64,000 nucleotides of DNA from a virus (Duplodnaviria; Caudoviricetes), in IMG/VR virus record IMGVR_UViG_3300014204_000188, positions 2,002 to 66,001 of that record. One strand, 5' to 3'. A model generated the notes under the pieces. That model saw nothing but the letters and a program-made list of their open reading frames with translations, did no database searches and was not told the DNA's origin. Below are positions 3 through 59,052 of the stretch, piece by piece. Each line of letters opens with the position of its first letter. The first letter of the stretch is position 1. Made by a program: the position numbers and the translations under genes.

Positions 3-521
3 AGGTCTTACTACGTACAAAGAAAAATAAAAATGTTGTTATCCACTCATGAGAGTGGATCTTTATCAGTGAATAATATTAAATCAATCTTAAATTCTTG
101 GGAACGTGCATTTTCATTTTTTCCAGATATAATCATTATTGATTATGCTGATTTATTAATTGCTAATTCTCCAGCAGAATTCAGACATCAACAAAATGAA
201 ATCTGGAGAAATTTACGATCTTTAGCACAGGAAACCAGAGGTTCAGCATTACCCATGGTTATTACAGCTACACAAGCAGATGCTGCAGCTTATGAAAATG
301 GATTGCTTAGATTACATAACTTTTCAGAAGATAAAAGAAAGTATGGTCATGTAACTGCCATGTATGGATTAAATCAAGATCCTCATGATCGAGAAAAAAA
401 GATTGGTTTGATGAGGATTAATGAATTAATCATTCGGGAAGCAGATTTTAGCAATGATAATACGGTTACTATTCTACAGAATTTAAGGCGTGGATTACCA
501 TATATTTCGTCATACTTATAA
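3..521 (+). CDS. dnaB: DnaB-like replicative helicase, C-terminal part (5' truncated by window edge)
   Basis: Walker B-like IIIIDYADLL, VITATQA and later RecA-fold motifs; the frame is open back to the window start. Confidence 0.75.
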   Translation, partial: RSYYVQRKIKMLLSTHESGSLSVNNIKSILNSWERAFSFFPDIIIIDYADLLIANSPAEFRHQQNEIWRNLRSLAQETRGSALPMVITATQADAAAYENGLLRLHNFSEDKRKYGHVTAMYGLNQDPHDREKKIGLMRINELIIREADFSNDNTVTILQNLRRGLPYISSYL

Positions 522-533
522 TCTATTAAAATC

Positions 534-914
534 ATGTTTACCATTAGAAAAGAATTTTCGTTTGAAGCCAGTCACCAATTACTTGGTTTACCGGTGGATC
601 ATCCATGTAGTAAATTACATGGACACTCTTATCGCGTTGTTATAGAATTGCATGGTCAATACATAAATAATGTAGGTATGTTGTATGATTATCGCGAATT
701 GGATAAAATTAAATTATACATTGATAAGATGTTAGATCACAAACATCTAAATGATGTAATTATCGGAAATCCTACAGCAGAAATATTGGCAATGCATCTA
801 TATGAGGTGTGTTTACCAATTTTCCCTGATTTGCTAAATGCAATTGAAATTTATGAAACCACAAAAACATCGGCAAGGTATGAACAACTTAATAGTGAAC
901 GATCTATTTTATAG
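534..914 (+). CDS. queD: 6-carboxy-5,6,7,8-tetrahydropterin synthase
   Basis: FEASHQL, CSKLHGHSYRV, LDHKHLND, NPTAE motifs. Confidence 0.93.
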   Translation: MFTIRKEFSFEASHQLLGLPVDHPCSKLHGHSYRVVIELHGQYINNVGMLYDYRELDKIKLYIDKMLDHKHLNDVIIGNPTAEILAMHLYEVCLPIFPDLLNAIEIYETTKTSARYEQLNSERSIL

Positions 915-1500
915 TTTGCAAGGAGAAGGATATCATGCCGGAGAAGCGGCAGTATTTATTCGACTTGCTGGATGTAATCTTCATTGTCCATATTGTGACA
1001 CTGATTATATTTCTGGAATTGAAATGAGTATGCAACAAATAGATTCTATGCTTCCAGCTAAATGTAAATGGATCGTCTGGACTGGAGGAGAACCTGCACA
1101 ACAATTAACAGAAGAACATATTCAATATTTTCAATCCACGAAGTATTATCAGGCTATTGAAACAAATGGCAGTTTACCAGTGCCAGCTGGGCTTGATTAT
1201 GTATCATGCAGTCCAAAGATTGATTTACTTAAAGTAAAAAGAAATCTTTCTAAATATCAATCCATTGGAGAAACAAGATGTTTAATAGGAATAGATGATG
1301 ATGGAATTAGTCATTTCCCGCCAGATATTAATTTATTACCAAAATCTATTCATTACTATGTTTCACCTATGTTTATTGGAGAAGAACATAAGAAATATGA
1401 ATTGGATAAATCTAATCTACAGAAAGCTATTGAATGGGTTAAATTTGATCCTCGATGGAAATTATCCATTCAGCAGCATAAAATTTGGAATATTCCTTGA
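880..1500 (+). CDS. queE: 7-carboxy-7-deazaguanine synthase (radical SAM)
   Basis: FYSLQGEG, FIRLAGCNLHCPYCDT, TGGEP, IETNG, LSIQQHK; likely start is ATG 880, overlapping queD. Confidence 0.93.
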   Translation: MNNLIVNDLFYSLQGEGYHAGEAAVFIRLAGCNLHCPYCDTDYISGIEMSMQQIDSMLPAKCKWIVWTGGEPAQQLTEEHIQYFQSTKYYQAIETNGSLPVPAGLDYVSCSPKIDLLKVKRNLSKYQSIGETRCLIGIDDDGISHFPPDINLLPKSIHYYVSPMFIGEEHKKYELDKSNLQKAIEWVKFDPRWKLSIQQHKIWNIP

Positions 1501-1510
1501 AAGAAATATA

Positions 1511-1539
1511 TTGAAAGAAATATAGTTTCATTGTATAAT
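1511..1539 (+). promoter_or_regulatory. sigma70-like promoter TTGAAA-N17-TATAAT
   Basis: Near-consensus hexamers with 17-nt spacing in the queE/ORF1576 gap. Confidence 0.5.
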
Positions 1540-1575
1540 AAATACTATTAACATAATTTTTAAAATCTTTACGAA

Positions 1576-2346
1576 ATGAAATTAGTACAAATGATTGATG
1601 CCTGTCAAGAATTAATTGATGTGATGGGCTTAGGTCCTGAAGAAGGATCCGAAGAAATCGCTGATGAAAAAGGCTTGTTACTTATTCCAGATGATATTAC
1701 AGCACCTGGAATATTGACTTTGCTCACCAAGTGTTCGAAAGAGATCAATGAAACTGATGTATTCACTGATGCTACTTTATCTGTTTTAGCTGAATTGAAA
1801 CTTTGGCCTGCTGAATTGAATGAACCTGAAGAAATCAACGAAAACGAAGAGTTGATTCAACAAATTCTTTCTACAGAAAAATTGGCAATTCAGCCTCGTA
1901 TGGTTGCATTGAAAAACATCGTAAAAACCAACCCTTTGTTTGCTTCCATGAGAAAAACCATCGCTGGTAAGTTTGCCATTGATGAAATTCAATCACAGAT
2001 GTTGAATTTATTGCATTTCAAACAAGAAGTTGCCGCAGTTGATGCTAAAACAAAAACTATTCCAGCACCACCTGTAAAACCAGCATCTGTAGCATCTGCC
2101 TCACCAAAGAAATCTGGAGTGATACCAGCAAAGCATGAAGGTTCTCTGGCAGAATTCATTGATAAATTGATTCTTAAAGGAGGTAATTTTGATGTTATAG
2201 CAGATGCTGCAACAAAAGAAGCAGAAAAACGGGGTTTAAAAATTCGGTACAATGAGAAAGGAATTCGTTATCATATCAATTATCGATTGAAACGTAATTC
2301 GGGATGGTTAGGTGAATTGAAAATCACAGAAAAAGGCATTGAGTAA
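1576..2346 (+). CDS. hypothetical protein (acidic N-terminus, Pro/Ala linker, basic C-terminus)
   Basis: Long ORF abutting folE; no recognisable family motif. Confidence 0.7.
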
Positions 2347-2882
2347 TGCAAGAATTAATTAAAAGGCAACTTGCCTTTATTGGAGAGGATCCTGGCCGTG
2401 AAGGGTTGATTGAAACTCCAGCCAGGATCCTTAAATCGTGGGATACATTGTATTCTGGATATAAACAAAATCCTGCAGATATTTTTACTGAATTTAAATC
2501 TGAAGGATATGATCAGATGGTACTCCTTCGAAATATTGAAATGTATTCTATGTGTGAGCATCATATGTTGCCATTTTTTGGTAAAGCTCATGTTGCCTAT
2601 CTTCCCGGAGATAGAATAGTTGGAATTTCTAAACTTGCCAGATTGGTTGATATTTACGCTCGGCGTTTACAAATACAAGAACGTTTAGGAGAACAAATAA
2701 CTACAGCATTGATGGAATATTTACACCCAAAAGGAGCTGCTTGTATAATTGAAGCCCAACATATGTGTATGCTTATGCGCGGTGTTCAAAAACAGAATTC
2801 TATTCTGGTCACATCCAGTTTAAAAGGAGAATTTCTTACTGATGCCACTCTACGTGCAGAATTTATGTCTTTTATAAAATGA
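2346..2882 (+). CDS. folE: GTP cyclohydrolase I
   Basis: [48 protein letters not shown]. Confidence 0.96.
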
Positions 2883-3871
2883 AATTATCAGTAATTTATC
2901 TTACGAGACATTGTCCAAGACATTGTAGTTATTGTGCTATTCGAGATACTCTCAAACCACAGGAAGAATTACAAATGCCTGAATGGAAACATGTTTTTCA
3001 AATATTAAAAACTATTAGGATTGATTTTAATCTAATCCTTGGTAATGAACCTTGGTTGCTTGGAGAAAATCTTTTACCTATCTTACATTCTACAGATGTA
3101 CCTTACGCTTTATATACCGCAGGAATTCCTTCGTTGTTTAAGAAATATCATTTATCATTCTTTGGGTATAATCAGATTAAAAACTTTTCAATTGGAATAG
3201 ATTATCCTTTAGGTTTAGATTTAGTGATAAAAGATGATTCCTATACAAAAGCAATGGATGCTTGGGAGGCTTTACAATACGTTCGTAAATTCTATCCATG
3301 GGTAGAAACTCATGCGACAATAACTGTGCATAAACTGAATTATCAGTATCTTCCACAGTTAGTAAGACAACTACAAAATTTGAACATCAACATAAACATT
3401 AATTTCATTCATTGGAATAATGGAGGTGGTTTTGATTTCTTTCCAAGTTTTAAATGTATAAATCGGTTAATGTTTTCAGAAAATGACTATTCAGAACTTC
3501 AGAAAATACTTGATGAAGTTTTACAAAACATAGAATTCATTCAAAATTCACAGATGTTGAAGCTTCCATTTCCAGAATTATTAGGAATGAAATGGCATTG
3601 TCAGGGCAATCCGTATGGTGGTCCAACTGTTGATGCCGATGGTTCTTTACGAGTGTGTGGGTATCGTAAAGGCATTGAGACATCTAAGTTTTCAATTTTT
3701 GATTTACCATCTAAAACAAAAGAATGGGAAGCTGCAGTAAAAGAAGATGCCTCTCATTGTCCAGGGTGTTCTTGGTCCTGTTCATGGATGTATCATTACT
3801 GGGAAAGAAATAATCCTGAACAAGGAAAACAAATCTTTATCAATCATAACAAAGAAAACAAATGTCAATAG
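2879..3871 (+). CDS. radical SAM protein with C-terminal Cys cluster (SPASM/twitch-like)
   Basis: CPRHCSYC (CxxxCxxC), [24 protein letters not shown]. Confidence 0.85.
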
Positions 3872-4410: not shown

Positions 4411-4970
4411 AAACAATGAAAGAAAAGAATTTAGTAATTCTATTTAGTGGTGGTGCGGATAGTACATTGCTTCTTAACTTGGCAATAAAATTACATTACT
4501 TACCATTATGTATTTTAGTTGATTATGGACAATCCCATATTGAAGAACTTTCTTTTGCTAAAGAAAGTTGTATAAAACATAATGTATCATTTCAAGTGGT
4601 AACTTTAGGAAATTTAGAAATTGATTCAAAGTTAACAGGCTCTTGTATTACAGAATACAAAGGAGTTTCTGAATGGCATGTGCCATCTCGAAATTTAATG
4701 TTTATTTCTATCGCTGCCAGTATTGCTGAAAGTCATGGAATTAATTTAATTTGGTATGGGGCGAATTATGAAGATCGAGAGCATCAATTTCCAGATTGTT
4801 ATCAGGAATGGGTGTTTTCAATCAATGAATTACTAAAACGTAATGGGAGTATGCCAATTACTGTAGAAGCTCCTTTATTAGGAATGTCAAAAAATCTAAT
4901 TATGCAATTATTAGAACAGTTTAATATTACAAACGATCAAATCTTTAGTGGTTATGGGAAAGATAAATGA
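4395..4970 (+). CDS. queC: QueC-like ATP pyrophosphatase lacking the C-terminal Zn-binding Cys motif
   Basis: VILFSGGADS PP-loop, VDYGQ, VPSRNLMF, FPDC, APLL; ends IFSGYGKDK. Confidence 0.85.
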   Translation: MSQTMKTMKEKNLVILFSGGADSTLLLNLAIKLHYLPLCILVDYGQSHIEELSFAKESCIKHNVSFQVVTLGNLEIDSKLTGSCITEYKGVSEWHVPSRNLMFISIAASIAESHGINLIWYGANYEDREHQFPDCYQEWVFSINELLKRNGSMPITVEAPLLGMSKNLIMQLLEQFNITNDQIFSGYGKDK

Positions 4971-5355
4971 GGTTGTAGAAGGGAAAAAGAAAACTTTTAC
5001 AAAGTTAGTGGATAAGCATCATAGTCCTTTAATTGTCAGAAAGTATACTCATTGGGGATTTCCAATTTACATTGGATTAATCACAGATAATGATTTATCT
5101 GATTTGGATGATTTTATTGTTAAAATTATTTCCGCAAACGTAAAAGAAGGATGGGTAGAAAACATTCAAACTTTACGAAACTTTGCTGGAGATCTTACTG
5201 AACAATTGAATGAACATTATGATCGATCAGAAGGAATTGCAGTCATTTTCTATGTCGATAAAATGTTTGTAAGTTCATTACATGGAGATTTTATGGTGCA
5301 TGCCGCATGTAAACAAGAATTGTTATTCTTATTAAACATGAGTACTGGAGTATAA
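4948..5355 (+). CDS. hypothetical protein within the modification cluster
   Basis: ORF fills the queC/PIG-L gap; no motif recognised. Confidence 0.6.
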   Translation: MVMGKINEVVEGKKKTFTKLVDKHHSPLIVRKYTHWGFPIYIGLITDNDLSDLDDFIVKIISANVKEGWVENIQTLRNFAGDLTEQLNEHYDRSEGIAVIFYVDKMFVSSLHGDFMVHAACKQELLFLLNMSTGV

Positions 5356-5357
5356 TC

Positions 5358-5828
5358 ATGAGTTATATAGTAATAGCACCACATGCCGATGATGAAATAA
5401 TCGGTTGCTATGAATTGTTGACAAAATGGAATAAAGATATTAAAGTTGTTCTTTTTCCTTCTCAACAAGCCATAGATGAATCAGGTTTAAGTAGTCAAAT
5501 AATGAAGTTTGACCGAGGACATACCGATTATCTACCTACAATAATAACAAAATCTGATGTACTTGTTTTCCCTGATCCAATCTATGAATTACATCCTGAA
5601 CATCGTAAATGGGGGCAGATTGGAGAACAGTATGCTCGATCTGGTCATAAAGTTATATTTTATACTACAAATATGCTTGCTCCATACATCCATGAAGTAG
5701 AATTTTCTTTCGTAAAGAAAGAAGTATTAGATAGAGTTTATTTTGAAAAACAACAACTATGGTTGTATGACCATAAATATTTTTTATTTGAAGGTTATAC
5801 TAGTTGGATTTTATCATGGAACGATTGA
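5358..5828 (+). CDS. PIG-L/LmbE family de-N-acetylase
   Basis: VIAPHADDEIIG (HxDD) and later HPEH. Confidence 0.85.
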   Translation: MSYIVIAPHADDEIIGCYELLTKWNKDIKVVLFPSQQAIDESGLSSQIMKFDRGHTDYLPTIITKSDVLVFPDPIYELHPEHRKWGQIGEQYARSGHKVIFYTTNMLAPYIHEVEFSFVKKEVLDRVYFEKQQLWLYDHKYFLFEGYTSWILSWND

Positions 5829-6760
5829 TTTTCATACCACAATATCCTACATCAATGAGATATCAGGAATGGTGGCTACCCATGTTTCAAGAAAAATTTA
5901 AAACTCATTTTAAGTCGATTTTAACGCTTGGAAAATTGCCAAGTAATAATTTAGCCTTAGGACAAGAATTTGCTCCTTTTACGCAGTCAATTCAATTTGA
6001 ACAGAGTCAAATCGATGAATATCTTTCCTTAGAAATAAGAAAGGATGATATTCTTCTTTTAAATGATTTGAGTTATCCGGGATTATTTGCTCAGATGCTT
6101 TTTCATAAACGACCCAATCGATGCTTTGCAATTTGTCATGCCACTTCAAAAAATAGATATGATTATTTTTCTAAAGATAGAAATAGTAAATATTCTATAG
6201 AAAAATCAGTAGGAAAACTGTTTAAAAAAGTTTTCGTAGCATCAAATTATCATGCTCAAAAATTAAATTGGAATAATCTTGTGATTGCTCCGTTTCCATT
6301 TCAACCTTTTCAATCACCTGAAATTATTGTACCTATTGAAAAAAGAATAAGAAACATTGTTTCTATCTCACGTTCAGGAATTCAGAAAAGAAATCATATA
6401 TTAGAAAGTACAGTTGAAAATTTCATAGGTCAGTCTATTGATACTCCAAAAAATAGAAATACTTGGGATTCTTACAATGCGTTTTTACAATCTTCAAAAG
6501 TTGTTTTAATCACATCTAAGGAAGAAACTTATGGATATCAAGTGATTGATGCTGTAAGAAATGGATGCATCCCAATCGCTCCTGCCACATGTAGTTACCC
6601 CGAATTATTATCAAAAGATTATTTATTTACTGATATTCCTGATTTGATTTTAAAAGTGAATAAAGCTCTTACTGGGCAATTGCCTATTCCAAGATTATTA
6701 GTGGAAGAAAGTCAAAAAGAATTTTTTAATATACTATTTCATGAGTTTGATAATGCTTGA
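5816..6760 (+). CDS. GT-B fold (GT4-like) glycosyltransferase
   Basis: SKEETYGYQVIDAVRNGCIPIAP..SYPEL resembles the E-x7-E(D) signature region. Confidence 0.75.
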   Translation: MERLIFIPQYPTSMRYQEWWLPMFQEKFKTHFKSILTLGKLPSNNLALGQEFAPFTQSIQFEQSQIDEYLSLEIRKDDILLLNDLSYPGLFAQMLFHKRPNRCFAICHATSKNRYDYFSKDRNSKYSIEKSVGKLFKKVFVASNYHAQKLNWNNLVIAPFPFQPFQSPEIIVPIEKRIRNIVSISRSGIQKRNHILESTVENFIGQSIDTPKNRNTWDSYNAFLQSSKVVLITSKEETYGYQVIDAVRNGCIPIAPATCSYPELLSKDYLFTDIPDLILKVNKALTGQLPIPRLLVEESQKEFFNILFHEFDNA

Positions 6761-7784
6761 TTCTGGGGCTTACTCAGCATATACTAAAGGCAAAGCAATT
6801 GATATAAATCAATATGCCCAATTTCTTTTACAAAATTCAAAACATTTTGATTATTGTATTAATCTCGATGTAATACTGAATGCTAAAGCCAGTTATACTA
6901 ATTGGCAATATTTACGTAGTTTAGGATTGAATGTTCTTCCAGTATATCATATTGGAACTGATGAAATCTGGTTAAAGAAATATCTAAAGCAAACAGATTA
7001 TATTGCTCTTGGTGCAGTAGCAAATCTAAGTTCTACACAAAGAATGCAGAGTCTTACTCGAATCTGGGATTCTTACTTAACCAATTCTGAGGGATTTCCT
7101 ATAGTAAATGTTCATGGATTAGGATTAACTGCAATTTCATTAATGTTAAGATATCCATGGTTTTCTGTAGATTCTATCACTCCAATTATTGCTTCTGCGT
7201 ATGGACGGATTTTTTTACCTCAGTATACTAGAAAAAACAATCAAGATACATTTTCTTATTTCAATGGATTTTTTTGTAATGTATCTGATCAATCTAAACA
7301 AAAAGTAGGTACTACAACAAGTTTTCTTGGATTACCAAAATTAATTCAAGAAAAATATATTGATTATATTGAAAGAAATGGATATATCTTAGGTAATCTA
7401 TATCATCAGAAAAAAAGAGCAACAAAAAAAGATAAACATGAAAATAGGAAAGAGCATGCTTCGTTATTTACATTAGATCAATCTATGAAAACTGATGCTC
7501 CAGATACTTTGGCTAATTCATGGAAGCAACGTTTATTATACAATGCCTATGTTTGGAATCAATTAATCTTACGAATGCCTAAATATCCAAGAAAACATAA
7601 TTCAATAATTCCTGCAGAAATTCCAAATCATAATAAAAAAATACATGTATACTATGGAGTTAGTACTTCTACACACATAGATTTTATGAAATGGGTAATT
7701 CCACAGCCAGATATTCTAGTTAGTTACGCATATATGACAGATAAATTGCTTAATACCATTGAATCATATAAAAAAATTAAATAA
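6741..7784 (+). CDS. dpdA: DpdA-like deoxyguanine transglycosylase (TGT fold)
   Basis: MLDSGAYS, NLDVI, LPVYH, YIALG, VHGLG, YPWFSVDS; adjacent to preQ0 synthesis genes. Confidence 0.82.
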   Translation: MSLIMLDSGAYSAYTKGKAIDINQYAQFLLQNSKHFDYCINLDVILNAKASYTNWQYLRSLGLNVLPVYHIGTDEIWLKKYLKQTDYIALGAVANLSSTQRMQSLTRIWDSYLTNSEGFPIVNVHGLGLTAISLMLRYPWFSVDSITPIIASAYGRIFLPQYTRKNNQDTFSYFNGFFCNVSDQSKQKVGTTTSFLGLPKLIQEKYIDYIERNGYILGNLYHQKKRATKKDKHENRKEHASLFTLDQSMKTDAPDTLANSWKQRLLYNAYVWNQLILRMPKYPRKHNSIIPAEIPNHNKKIHVYYGVSTSTHIDFMKWVIPQPDILVSYAYMTDKLLNTIESYKKIK

Positions 7785-51432: not shown

Positions 51433-52998
51433 TTAAGCCCTTTCCATCTTATGTAATGGACCAGCCATCCGTTTAGAAGTTAGTTTAGCAAAACAAGCTC
51501 CCGCTGAATCTACCTGATCTTTATACTTACCGAATGGGAAATCCCGATGTTCCGTAATAAAATCTTCATTCCAAGAAGCTTCTAACAATAAAACATTCCC
51601 ATTATTCACTTGTACTGAATATGGATCTGCCCGATAAATCTTATCTCCATGTGGTAAATCTCGTTCCCCAACAAATCCAGCCAGATTCTTTGTAGTAGCT
51701 TCTGCACTTTCTTTACCACCAGAACCAGGCTCCTGTTCATAATATATAGCACATTCTATTCCATCAGCCTCAGCAGTCTCACGAATAATATCTTCCCGTT
51801 CTTCAGCATCCCATCTACCTCGTTTTACATCAGCAACTATCCACTTTCCGTTCTTCAACTTTATCATCTTAGTCCCTACAGTATAACAAGGTCCATTCTT
51901 TGAGTTTAATATCTCTTTTGTACCAGCCTTATCCCAATACCGAGCTACAGACTCCCAATTAATAGAACTTGGTAATGCTTGAATCTTGATAAAATGATCC
52001 ACTTTAAACATCCCACCTGCTGGTGGTGTGGGTGACTGACCCACTTGGCCTGCAAATCCATATTGACCAAGATCAGCCATCAAATCATCTAAGATAGTAC
52101 GGCTTAATCTAACAGGATCCAACAATCCATCTACATAATACTTTTTCAATTCTGCAGGTTCTACCAAATTACCATATCTACCATCCAACAACCCAGGCAA
52201 TACGATACATTTAAGATTTTGTTTATGTTTTTTTCGTTGATGTTCTGTTGGATCATTCACTGCCAACCGTTGCATGATACCAATTACAACAGACACCTCT
52301 TTATCCACCTTCCTGGTAGGCATTGTTTGATCCAGAAAATCATTCGCTGTTTGTAGAGCTGTTATACTCACTGCCTCATGTGGATTGATAATATCATCCC
52401 AAATCAAAATATGTCCATGGAATCCTGTACCCTTCCCATCTATGCCTGTACTAAGCCGAGTACCCCCGTTTAGAATCCTCGGCAAACGGCCTGGGTGTAC
52501 TTGAACTTTCTTGATTATACGGAAGTTCCCTTTAGCATCTTTGTCTTGTTTTATCTCTAATTCCGGATAAATCACTCGAAACCGCTCACTGCGAACAATT
52601 TCCCTACTATACTCCGCAGATTCCCAACTTAAGTCTGCACTATAGCTCCAACAAATAAACTTCATCCAATACCACCGAGTCCAACACCATACTGGAAACA
52701 TAATAGAACATATCGCAGTTTTCGTTGTTCCTGGAGGAATATTAACAATCAAATCATAAGCCTTTGGATCATGTCTTCCTACTCTTTCTGCTATTTCTTG
52801 TAACTCATCACATAAATACTTGATATGCCAATTATCTCGAAATGGTTCCATACTATAATCAGGCCAGAAATATTTTAGAAAATGATAAAAGCTCCTATTG
52901 TTTAACTCTCTCACCAATAACTGTGGATGAGCTATTGCAAATTGAAGCACCTGTTTTTTAGGTGGGTATTTTCTAACTATTTTAGTTTCTGGAAACAT
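51433..52998 (-). CDS. terL: terminase large subunit
   Basis: NIPPGTTKT Walker A, LIWDD, YWDKAGT, EQEPGSGG, DQVDS. Confidence 0.9.
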   Translation of the reverse strand: MFPETKIVRKYPPKKQVLQFAIAHPQLLVRELNNRSFYHFLKYFWPDYSMEPFRDNWHIKYLCDELQEIAERVGRHDPKAYDLIVNIPPGTTKTAICSIMFPVWCWTRWYWMKFICWSYSADLSWESAEYSREIVRSERFRVIYPELEIKQDKDAKGNFRIIKKVQVHPGRLPRILNGGTRLSTGIDGKGTGFHGHILIWDDIINPHEAVSITALQTANDFLDQTMPTRKVDKEVSVVIGIMQRLAVNDPTEHQRKKHKQNLKCIVLPGLLDGRYGNLVEPAELKKYYVDGLLDPVRLSRTILDDLMADLGQYGFAGQVGQSPTPPAGGMFKVDHFIKIQALPSSINWESVARYWDKAGTKEILNSKNGPCYTVGTKMIKLKNGKWIVADVKRGRWDAEEREDIIRETAEADGIECAIYYEQEPGSGGKESAEATTKNLAGFVGERDLPHGDKIYRADPYSVQVNNGNVLLLEASWNEDFITEHRDFPFGKYKDQVDSAGACFAKLTSKRMAGPLHKMERA

Positions 52999-53572
52999 CC
53001 GTGTTGGCCCCTTGGGTTAATCCTAACTTCAATGCCCATTCCAATTCTTCAGTACTATATTGTTTTGGATCACTTAAGTTTTCTTGCAACAAATTAATAT
53101 CCACCTGACCTTCCATCGTAATATTGATTTGGCTTTGTTGTACATCTGCCCATTTTTCACGCTGACGAACTTGTAGCCATTTCTGAGCAGCAAATGGATT
53201 AGGTGGAAAATACTTTATAATAGGTATAACTAAAGCTTCTGTATGTTCTGTTACTTCCCTGGTTTCTATATTGAAAGTACGTACTCTATTACTTAGAATA
53301 TGAATATCAGGATGTGTAAACCCATTAGCTAACTTATAATAACTATGTGCCACATTCATATCTGCCTCTATTTTGCCTCTCTTTAAAGCTGCAGTAAAAA
53401 CAGGATTAGTTTGTTTCCAATAGGTAATGGTTGTAACATCTACTTCAAAGAAATCTGCTATCTCTTTTTCTGTCGCCCCCAGTAATGCTAACTTATAAGT
53501 TTGTTTTTCAAACTCAGGCCTCCATCTTCCTTTAGCACCCACTCCATGTGGATTGTATCTACGGACGTACAT
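52982..53572 (-). CDS. terS: terminase small subunit
   Basis: N-terminal HTH (GATEKEIADFFEVDVTTITYW), AAQKWL..R..EKW; overlaps terL. Confidence 0.8.
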   Translation of the reverse strand: MYVRRYNPHGVGAKGRWRPEFEKQTYKLALLGATEKEIADFFEVDVTTITYWKQTNPVFTAALKRGKIEADMNVAHSYYKLANGFTHPDIHILSNRVRTFNIETREVTEHTEALVIPIIKYFPPNPFAAQKWLQVRQREKWADVQQSQINITMEGQVDINLLQENLSDPKQYSTEELEWALKLGLTQGANTDVSRN

Positions 53573-53747: not shown

Positions 53748-54071
53748 ATGGAAACAATACATCGCAGAATTCAAACAGAACTAACCAAACAGAAAATTTC
53801 AAAAGCACTTACTGGAAAAAAACATACCCCAGAACATAAACAAAGAATTAGTGAAAGTTTGTTAGGAAAACCTAAAACAAAACAAACCATTCGAAAAATG
53901 AGCTTGGCTAAACGTAACATGTCCGACCTTACTAAATATCGAATGAGTCTAGCTAAACGTGGAAAGAATCATCCTCTGTATGGAATAACCGGCCCAGCCA
54001 ATCCCAGATGGGGAAAAAAGTACCCAAAGAAAATTATTCAGAAAAACTCTTCAGATATATCCATTGTATAG
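53748..54071 (+). CDS. stand-alone NUMOD3-repeat protein
   Basis: GKKHTPEHKQRISES, KTKQTIRKMS, TKYRMSLAKRG..HPLYG, NPRWG. Confidence 0.75.
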   Translation: METIHRRIQTELTKQKISKALTGKKHTPEHKQRISESLLGKPKTKQTIRKMSLAKRNMSDLTKYRMSLAKRGKNHPLYGITGPANPRWGKKYPKKIIQKNSSDISIV

Positions 54072-54274
54072 TCTCACTTTACAAAGCCTATTTGTTGCGT
54101 TTGCTAAGATGTCTATACTATGGTTTGAACGATTTTCTAAACAAAATCGCTGTTTTTTCACACCAAACAGTAGAAACTTCACTGTAAAACACTCTGATTT
54201 CAACAGATTTTGTCTATAACTTATTGAATATGAATAAGAAAAAAATTTAAAAAAATTTTGTTAAAAAACGTAGG

Positions 54275-54305
54275 TTTGTTAAAAATCTATTTATATTTAT
54301 ATGTG
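54275..54305 (+). promoter_or_regulatory. possible Bacteroidota-type -33/-7 promoter (TTTG-N19-TATATGTG)
   Basis: One mismatch to TAnnTTTG; lies just upstream of the structured RNA. Confidence 0.3.
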
Positions 54306-54328
54306 TTTAAGTTGTTTGAAATTTTGGA

Positions 54329-54708
54329 AATTTTGAGACGGAAAGAGGAAATCTTCGACAGTCTGGAGTTCTAAAGTGTTTTAACTAACTGATTGAAAGG
54401 GTGTTAAAGTCGAGCCAGATCTCAAAATTGTACCATGAGAAGGCAAATCCGAGTATTAGACCGTTTACGGTTATGCGAATATGTTGATGCCATTTAGTAT
54501 ATGGACAAAGCCTTACGCCAGCAAACCTGGTAGCATTAGAGCGTATCAGTAGGGTGGACATATTATTACGCATAGCAATCGAACTAAATAATACGGTTGG
54601 AAGTTGAAACACAATCCTTTGACTTCTATATATCGCTTGGTAATTTGGGCCAAGCAGTATTGACTACGGCGGACGCTTTCACTTTGGTTCGACTCCAAAG
54701 GTAGCCAC
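54329..54708 (+). ncRNA. large structured non-coding RNA ending in a T-loop tRNA-like domain
   Basis: Multiple long-range helices (e.g. 54329-38/54420-29; 54472-84/54558-74) and TTTGG-TTCGACT-CCAAA arm. Confidence 0.7.
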
Positions 54709-54736
54709 AGTATAAACAATTCTAAAACTTACTGTC

Positions 54737-54931
54737 ATGAACAACACAAGAAGAAAACAAATCAGTGATTTGCTCAGTAAACTGAATGAAATGAAATCAG
54801 AGTTAAAAACTATTCAAAATGATGAACAGAAATACTTTAATAACGTTCCAGAAAACCAACAGGATAGTGTACGTTATTACAATTCAGAATCCATACTAAC
54901 ACAATTGGATGAAGCTTGTTTTTTACTTTGA
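54737..54931 (+). CDS. early hypothetical protein
   Basis: MNNTRRKQI...QNDEQ..FNNVPEN.Q pattern common in phages. Confidence 0.6.
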   Translation: MNNTRRKQISDLLSKLNEMKSELKTIQNDEQKYFNNVPENQQDSVRYYNSESILTQLDEACFLL

Positions 54932-54957
54932 ACATATGATAGAAAATCTCCAGGAAA

Positions 54958-55018
54958 TTATATCATTCCACTGATAAGACTTTAATAGTTGAAACCGGAA
55001 TTTATTCCAGTCTATAAC
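54958..55018 (+). ncRNA. degenerate type I hammerhead ribozyme
   Basis: CTGATAA (G8 to A), stem II GACT/AGTT, GAAAC, stem III with a mismatch, GTC; weak stem I. Confidence 0.5.
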
Positions 55019-55022
55019 ATAT

Positions 55023-55107
55023 GGCTTTGCTCCTCGGGATGATAGCCCCGTGAGAGTCCCGGAACCAGGTTTAGACTTGGATGGTGGTCCGAATCCGCCC
55101 ATTGCCA
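55023..55107 (+). ncRNA. tRNA-like element without D arm
   Basis: Acceptor-like GGCTTTG/CATTGCC+A, T arm GGTGG-TCCGAAT-CCGCC, hairpins CGGGAT/GTCCCG and CCAGGT/ACTTGG. Confidence 0.55.
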
Positions 55108-55443: not shown

Positions 55444-55497
55444 GTTACACTGACGAGATTTTATGAATCGAAACCGGAATTCGTTCCGGTCTGTAAC
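55444..55497 (+). ncRNA. type I hammerhead ribozyme
   Basis: GTTACA CTGACGA GATT-ttatg-AATC GAAA CCGGAA-ttcg-TTCCGG TC TGTAAC; predicted cleavage 3' of C55491. Confidence 0.93.
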
Positions 55498-56154: not shown

Positions 56155-56196
56155 ACCCATTTTGGAACTGCCCCGGTTCGATTCCGGAGATGGGTT
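56155..56196 (+). ncRNA. tRNA minihelix-like element (acceptor + T arm)
   Basis: AACCCATT/GATGGGTT stem with CCGG-TTCGATT-CCGG arm; 9-nt linker. Confidence 0.6.
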
Positions 56197-56249
56197 CGAA
56201 CAATAAATTTATCATTTTCAAAAATTAATAATTTTAAATCTTAAACATT

Positions 56250-56549: not shown

Positions 56550-56605
56550 GATTTACTGATGAGGCTTCAATAGCCGAAACCCGGAGTGTACTCCGGGTCT
56601 AAATC
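56550..56605 (+). ncRNA. type I hammerhead ribozyme
   Basis: GATTTA CTGATGA GGCT-tcaat-AGCC GAAA CCCGGAG-tgta-CTCCGGG TC TAAATC; predicted cleavage 3' of C56599. Confidence 0.93.
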
Positions 56606-56892: not shown

Positions 56893-56944
56893 AACTTACT
56901 GACGAGGCTTCAATAGCCGAAACCGGGCTTGCCCGGTCTAAGTT
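56893..56944 (+). ncRNA. type I hammerhead ribozyme
   Basis: AACTTA CTGACGA GGCT-tcaat-AGCC GAAA CCGGG-cttg-CCCGG TC TAAGTT; predicted cleavage 3' of C56938. Confidence 0.93.
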
Positions 56945-58962: not shown

Positions 58963-59052
58963 CGAGAGAATAGTTTAAATCGGTAAAATTAAAAACCAAC
59001 AAATTTTTAGATAGAAGTTCAAATCTTCTTTCTCTCACTAATCATTAATCAC

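Follow-up and report, generated by a model that had tools for sequence, protein, structure and literature searches.

Genomic setting and extent of the RNA

The window, that is the whole 64,000-nt stretch of DNA analysed in this work, corresponds to bases 2002–66001 of a complete IMG/VR virus record of 66,001 nt with direct terminal repeats, derived from an uncultivated 66-kb phage. Within it, a structured RNA region of ~385 nt occupies positions 54325–54707 of the + strand, a refinement of the extent of 54329–54708 (~390 nt) proposed in an earlier note on this DNA. The GC content within the RNA is 0.36–0.43, against 0.24 upstream and 0.30 downstream, in keeping with the enrichment over the flanks described in that note. 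On one side of the RNA lies a leftward block containing terL and a terS-like gene, and on the other a rightward run of small co-oriented ORFs, which the RNA heads and which carries hammerhead cores and tRNA-like minihelices between its ORFs. The features surrounding the RNA are as follows.

51433–52998, minus strand: terL, in the leftward block
52982–53572, minus strand: terS-like gene, in the leftward block
53748–54071, plus strand: ORF of 107 aa with NUMOD3 DNA-binding motifs only and no nuclease domain
54261–54300, plus strand: conserved AT-rich block, candidate promoter
54325–54707, plus strand: structured RNA
54737–54931, plus strand: first downstream small ORF, 64 aa, outside the RNA and given for context only

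The NUMOD3-only ORF directly precedes the RNA, in the same orientation, and is kept in all relatives that carry the RNA. The two are separated by an AT-rich spacer of 257 nt, within which the block at 54261–54300 is kept across all five sequences aligned below and the rest of the spacer diverges. This block, 30–70 nt upstream of the RNA, consists of an A-run followed by CGTAGGTTT, AAAATC and TATATTTA, and in one homologue (L167) it is separated from the first helix by a 39-nt insertion. A search upstream of the RNA for a sigma-70 consensus promoter found none, and the AT-rich block does not match that consensus. The earlier placement of the RNA as the first element after a candidate promoter is thus plausible given the conserved block, but lacks a sigma-70 consensus and carries the caveat that the NUMOD3 ORF stands further upstream on the same strand. 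The 64-aa ORF downstream has neither relatives beyond this genome nor a Pfam family, and the RNA is therefore not tied to a conserved partner gene.

Covariation among homologues supports the fold

A TerL-guided search of IMG/VR, JGI metagenomes and a large assembly collection recovered four full-length homologues and one partial homologue on landfill and other metagenome contigs, with 78–94% identity to the window. Two pairs within the set are closer to each other than to the window.

L011: full-length homologue, 94% identical to the window
L167: full-length homologue, 82% identical
L013: full-length homologue, 79% identical
L158: full-length homologue, 78% identical
L002: partial homologue

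The window and the four full-length homologues were aligned (alignment A4, five sequences) and folded with RNAalifold, which returned 119 consensus pairs in 20 helices, with standard pairs in 96.6% of the cells. When the partners were slid by 1–3 columns, only 33–43% of cells paired. Double compensatory changes were found in 20 pairs, against 0–4 pairs in the slid controls, and none of 500 shuffles attained the observed values; because the five sequences represent approximately three lineages, the 20 compensatory pairs are not independent events. The covariation signal extends across nine helices and every part but the 3’ module. Folded on its own, the sequence has an unexceptional energy (z = –1.5), so that the related sequences had to decide, and the support for the fold comes from covariation rather than from single-sequence energy. 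Covariation among collected homologues was one of the checks that the earlier note had put forward for its claim of an ornate non-coding RNA, and it is present.

Open frames differ between the five sequences in strand and position, none being conserved, and the indels that distinguish the homologues are of 1, 2 or 3 nt, which bears out the absence of a credible + strand ORF noted earlier. Only the + strand accommodates the frequent G·U pairs, the T loop and the hammerheads nearby. On this comparative sequence evidence, 54325–54707 is a structured non-coding RNA whose fold has been kept by compensating mutations.

Modular architecture of the RNA

The RNA consists of six consecutive parts, all on the plus strand.

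54325–54435: 5’ domain, with 10 pairs showing double compensatory changes; the most variable domain, with pairing kept
54436–54452: linker, with the invariant motif AAAUCCGA and a weakly predicted local small hairpin
54453–54594: central multi-junction domain, with 5 covarying pairs and invariant junctions and loops
54598–54628: 11-bp hairpin (54598–608/54618–28), with 4 compensatory pairs and pairing in all cells
54630–54660: 11-bp hairpin, abutting the tRNA-like domain with zero spacer
54661–54707: tRNA top-half mimic, 47 nt, near-invariant

The 5’ domain is closed by a helix formed by 54325–27/54433–35 and 54329–36/54422–29, which encloses the hairpin 54339–57, the helix 54362–66/54415–19 and the hairpin 54380–85/54403–08. 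The closing pairing AATTTTGA/TCAAAATT seen by the earlier reader shows two covarying pairs over 54329–36/54422–29, but the last 2 bp of that reader’s version are not kept. The TCTGG/CCAGA helix at 54362–66/54415–19 carries a U–A to C–G change, and the hairpin 54380–85/54403–08, which was absent from the earlier description, covaries at all six of its pairs. In the linker, the predicted hairpin (helix 7) pairs in only 84% of cells and shows zero covariation.

The central domain is formed by a closing helix (54453–58/54589–94), a long helix (54470–85/54557–76), a further helix at 54510–16/54549–55, and the hairpins 54488–94/54500–07 and 54518–21/54527–30. Three covarying pairs fall within the long helix, in agreement with the earlier pairing of TATGCG+AATATGT with ACATAT+CGCATA, and two within the CCAG/CTGG helix. 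The CCAT/ATGG and GCCTTAC/GTAGGGT helices are compatible with pairing and invariant in their letters across A4. The putative ACCG-ttta-CGGT hairpin competes with a supported extension of the long helix (54470–77/54569–76), and a pseudoknot once suggested between AAGGC and GCCTT is contradicted by uncompensated changes of AA to UU and of C to A or G. A search of the alignment for additional long-range covarying stacks or tertiary pairings yielded nothing convincing. A covariance model of the central domain (R1) identified a single copy within the window. Both 11-bp hairpins, known previously from their GAAGT/ACTTC and GCTTGG/CCAAGC segments, were upheld, the first by its four covarying pairs and the second by one compensatory pair together with three one-sided changes from G–C to G·U.

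Conservation differs sharply between the domains, the share of variable columns falling from 40% (5’ domain) through 23% (core) to 4% (tRNA-like module). Together with the homologue L167, in which a window-like 5’ domain is joined to an L013-like 3’ part in a manner that suggests recombination between modules, and with the similar minihelices that stand alone elsewhere in the operon, this could be read as a composite of independent modules without joint function, in which the 47-nt minihelix is the first processing signal of the operon and the upstream 335 nt are one or more unrelated small RNAs. Such a composite is distinctly unlikely, given that neither the order nor the spacing of the modules differs among the homologues in A4, none of which lacks a module, and that no other copy of the central domain was found among 93 sources, mostly related-phage loci.

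A tRNA top-half mimic at the 3’ end

The tRNA-like 3’ domain recognised in the earlier note was confirmed as a conserved module. Its acceptor stem of 7 bp is formed by UGACUAC (54661–67) with GUAGCCA (54701–07) and is followed by a mini-hairpin of 3 bp with the loop GGAC (GGC-GGAC-GCU, 54668–77). The T arm (54682–54700) has a 6-bp stem (54682–87/54695–700) and the loop UUCGACU (54688–94). The module thus possesses a canonical 7-nt T loop, a G–C closing pair and an acceptor/T stack of 12–13 bp, and ends in a discriminator-like, unpaired-looking A (54707), after which the sequence reads CA. The gap between the 5’ strand of the acceptor stem and the T arm is only 14 nt, with neither a D arm nor an anticodon arm, and no cloverleaf tRNA was called at the module by ARAGORN or matched by RF00005.

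Two of the 47 columns vary (96% invariant) and both changes improve pairing, one from A·C to A–U and the other from G·U to G–C; the A·C of the window is A–U in three homologues. The near-invariance of the module, stems included, suggests a constraint beyond that on a generic RNase P substrate.

The module displays structural and positional features by which t-element-type processing signals are recognised: its acceptor stem stacks on the T arm, the T loop has 7 nt, there is no anticodon arm, and it lies at a boundary on the sense strand, its end being 30 nt short of the next ORF. The acceptor stem is directly preceded by the hairpin 54630–60, without a single-stranded leader, and the 3’ tail is CA rather than CCA. 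An abutting hairpin without a leader and a CA tail are less than ideal for bacterial RNase P. The complete phage genome contains no CCA-adding enzyme gene.

Comparison with known RNA families and DNA elements

The window and three related loci were searched with cmscan against Rfam 15 (4227 families, among them tmRNA, RNase P, GOLLD, ROOL, T-box, group I/II introns and small ribozymes) at gathering scores and at E ≤ 10, and no match at E ≤ 10 was obtained at the RNA locus. The earlier note had left a choice between a GOLLD/ROOL-like RNA and a new class, with a search against GOLLD, ROOL, tmRNA and RNase P as the check; as all four are negative, the new-class branch stands and the GOLLD/ROOL branch does not. 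ARAGORN detected no tmRNA at thresholds of 100% and 80%, and at 60% returned an implausible permuted tmRNA call spanning two different T arms.

Individual candidates were rejected as follows. A tmRNA is contradicted by an acceptor stem that is local instead of end-to-end, a C–G pair in place of G·U at position 3:70, the absence of a conserved tag frame and of a pseudoknot ring, and the negative Rfam and ARAGORN results. Bacterial, archaeal and other RNase P models were unmatched, as were the GOLLD and ROOL covariance models at E ≤ 10 for both the window and its homologues. For a T-box leader there is no Rfam match, and the AGGGUGG sequence lies within the helices 54549–55 and 54557–63 rather than in a bulge. 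A YrlA-type Y RNA has no Rfam match either, and the phage genome encodes no TROVE/Ro gene. The complete genome is likewise without a reverse transcriptase and without an integrase or resolvase of the tyrosine or serine recombinase type; the absence of these three kinds of gene removes the Y RNA, retron or DGR template, and attP core readings, respectively. Between the RNA and the rest of the genome no complementarity of at least 12 nt was found, so that an antisense role against phage genes is not apparent.

That the RNA is a strongly diverged member of one of the known families (tmRNA, RNase P RNA, YrlA-type Y RNA, GOLLD/ROOL, T-box or group I intron) might still be argued from the length, which is typical of tmRNA or RNase P RNA, from the CGGACGC that precedes the T arm as it does at tmRNA 3’ ends (phage tmRNA-like match L131), from AGGGUGG, which we take to be a motif of T-box elements, and from the tRNA-like domain that YrlA also has. 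[quoted passage not shown]

An element acting at the level of DNA (an attP core, an origin or a pac site), or conservation without an RNA function, was weighed in the same way. The locus adjoins terS/terL, attP cores are typically tRNA 3’ halves, and tandem repeats occupy the equivalent slot of more distant relatives (L159, described below). Compensatory changes with strand-specific G·U pairs are not expected of such an element, however, and in addition to the missing recombinases, a search of 185,579 species genomes found no identical copy of the T-arm segment. A DNA-level explanation is accordingly considered highly improbable.

The RNA is most like two known kinds combined, the tRNA-linked ornate phage RNAs (GOLLD/ROOL) and tRNA-like processing signals. 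With GOLLD and ROOL it shares a phage origin, a length of several hundred nucleotides, many covarying helices and an association with tRNA. It differs from both in the absence of any sequence or covariance-model similarity, and from GOLLD in its smaller size and in carrying a half-tRNA mimic rather than a full tRNA; the linker region of GOLLD sometimes carries a covalently linked tRNA (bioRxiv 10.1101/2024.12.08.627333). Like the t-elements of plant mitochondria and MALAT1/mascRNA, it has an acceptor/T-arm module without an anticodon arm at the boundary of an RNA unit on the sense strand, in the same kind of slot as the hammerheads of this operon. The module, a candidate for cleavage, departs from these signals in that it is joined directly to a structured RNA of 335 nt and hardly varies in sequence.

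The resemblance to tmRNA lies in a T arm with a canonical loop, a reduced D-arm analogue with GG, the CGGACGC sequence before the T arm and a length of ~380 nt, whereas the acceptor stem is local and G3·U70, a tag reading frame and a pseudoknot ring are missing. YrlA-type Y RNAs are similarly modular non-coding RNAs with a domain that mimics the tRNA elbow, and some bacterial ones are reported to be phage-encoded (PMC4201824). YrlA is, however, shorter and pairs with the Ro60/Rsr protein, whereas this genome has no TROVE gene and the RNA is negative in Rfam. By the searches and comparisons made here, the RNA belongs to no described family and is taken to represent a new one, of ornate phage RNAs into which a half-tRNA is built.

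Hammerhead-like cores and minihelices in the downstream operon

The rightward operon contains further RNA elements in its intergenic gaps.

55013–55097, plus strand: tRNA-like minihelix
~55444–55496, plus strand: hammerhead-like core with complete CUGAnGA, GAAA and GUC
56155–56197, plus strand: tRNA-like minihelix
~56560–56604, plus strand: hammerhead-like core with complete CUGAnGA, GAAA and GUC
~56895–56943, plus strand: hammerhead-like core with complete CUGAnGA, GAAA and GUC

The three hammerhead cores score 25–33 bits against the RAGATH-1 hammerhead model, below its threshold. A fourth, degenerate hammerhead-like copy is located near 54970–55002. The minihelix at 55013–55097 has an anticodon-like 7-nt loop (AUGAUAG) and a variable-arm hairpin, and its T stem covaries among the window, L011 and L013. 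Elements of the same type were found in L011 (~3480–3590), L013 (minus strand, ~400–560), L027 and L033, and extend to phages whose TerL is only 55–56% identical. Further downstream, a tRNA gene at 58964–59038 scores 52 bits against RF00005 and has an anticodon loop of 8 nt; ARAGORN reports a four-base anticodon (‘aaca’) without assigning an amino acid, and this phage tRNA may resemble frameshift suppressors or be unusual in another way.

Possible processing and function of the RNA

The reading that we favour, tentatively and with slightly less than even confidence, is that of an RNA of ~385 nt and a new family that is transcribed rightward, processed by way of its tRNA-like end and active in trans; of this proposal, we infer the transcription, the cleavage sites and the action in trans. 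The RNA would be the first folded element to be transcribed from an early-type operon and would comprise a variable scaffold (the 5’ domain and the two hairpins), a conserved multi-junction core and the near-invariant 3’ module. Host tRNA-processing enzymes may recognise the tRNA-like module, with predicted cuts by RNase P 5’ of G54662 and by RNase Z after A54707. Cleavage would separate the folded RNA from the downstream mRNA, as the hammerheads and the other minihelices would do for the later genes. Through being either cut out or capped, the product would be a compact, nuclease-resistant RNA with defined and protected ends, the invariant core loops of which could act in trans on a host or phage partner. 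Shine–Dalgarno sequences are missing from the ORFs, a hint that the host may belong to Bacteroidota.

The same position would also suit a cis-acting 5’ leader that stays on the early transcript and controls it, whether through read-through by RNA polymerase, shielding of the 5’ end from RNases or gating of the downstream ORFs. The put RNAs of phage HK022, for example, modify RNA polymerase for read-through. The RNA opens a long operon of co-oriented genes, immediately downstream of the conserved promoter-like block, and a single contig from a wastewater run labelled RNA-Seq cDNA (which may be DNA) spans 54595–55009 unbroken, crossing the tRNA-like module into the first ORF; if this contig represents RNA, some molecules at least are uncut at the module, and the positions that the run leaves bare count neither way. 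Set against a leader are the downstream ORF, which is not conserved alongside the RNA, and the length of ~385 nt, which to our knowledge far exceeds that of known cis antiterminator RNAs. The tRNA top-half mimic at the junction and the self-cleaving motifs elsewhere in the operon likewise favour separation, and a cis-acting leader is considered unlikely.

In a broader reading, itself unlikely, the RNA would be the first representative of a new class of large phage RNAs whose built-in tRNA mimic serves to engage the host tRNA or translation machinery. In that case the RNA would be more than a processed leader and might sequester or divert RNase P, the CCA-adding enzyme or the ribosome, or might form an RNA-only particle displaying tRNA-like ends, an arrangement that has been proposed for GOLLD. 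Non-coding RNAs of such size and intricate folding are rare, and the few known, GOLLD, ROOL, OLE and raiA, have proved to be of unexpected architecture. The RNA described here adds a new and well-supported phage example, in which an ornate body is fused directly to a half-tRNA, and offers a test case for the use of host tRNA-processing enzymes on phage transcripts and for the role of ornate phage RNAs.

Distribution and related loci

Full-length copies of the RNA were confined to three sources: a metagenome assembly from a landfill, JGI sample 3300037067 and a single Logan run. The form present in the window, or a close variant of it, occurs in runs from landfill, groundwater and wastewater; where contigs from one of the landfill runs and from two groundwater runs differ from the window, the differences match known homologue variants. 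A blastn search against 50,697 phage records gave zero matches to the RNA, two scans of 185,579 species genomes returned nothing, and exact-pattern scans of IMG/VR for the core motifs recovered near-identical contigs only. A degenerate pattern for the 3’ end gave 67 matches, nearly all of them chance matches without a T arm and none a homologue. When the loci of TerL relatives were searched with nhmmer and the covariance model R1, the RNA was found at none where TerL is ≤67% identical. The family is narrow and specific to a small clade of uncultivated phages.

More distant relatives are without the ornate RNA; upstream of their terS/terL, and on the strand equivalent to that of the RNA, other tRNA-like elements are present. 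L023 (~618), L036 (~672) and L049 (~1722) carry, all on the minus strand, a family of ~70-nt tRNA-like elements without a D arm, with a hairpin that has a covarying stem and a conserved 10-nt loop (GAAAUAAUAA) and with a discriminator base followed by CAAA. In a phage group whose TerL is 55% identical, represented by L060 (2834–3198, minus strand), L065, L168 and L169, the slot upstream of terS/terL that corresponds to that of the RNA is occupied by a GC-rich, ORF-free stretch of ~300 nt that ends in an acceptor/T-arm minihelix. This stretch has zero sequence similarity to the RNA, and its copies are too invariant for a test of the fold.

Other observations concern individual relatives. In L159 (4050–4420, minus strand), tandem repeats of ~21 nt lie upstream of terS in a slot equivalent to that of the RNA, and the array may represent iterons or a packaging or replication site. 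A 51-kb relative, L161, contains ~3 kb without called genes (388–3463) in which TAG triplets are numerous, and stop-codon reassignment may have occurred in this phage. Finally, the close relative L165 encodes at 4413–6896 a Mu F-like head-morphogenesis protein of 827 aa that also matches ADP-ribosyltransferase families, namely ART and, weakly, ADPrib_exo_Tox.
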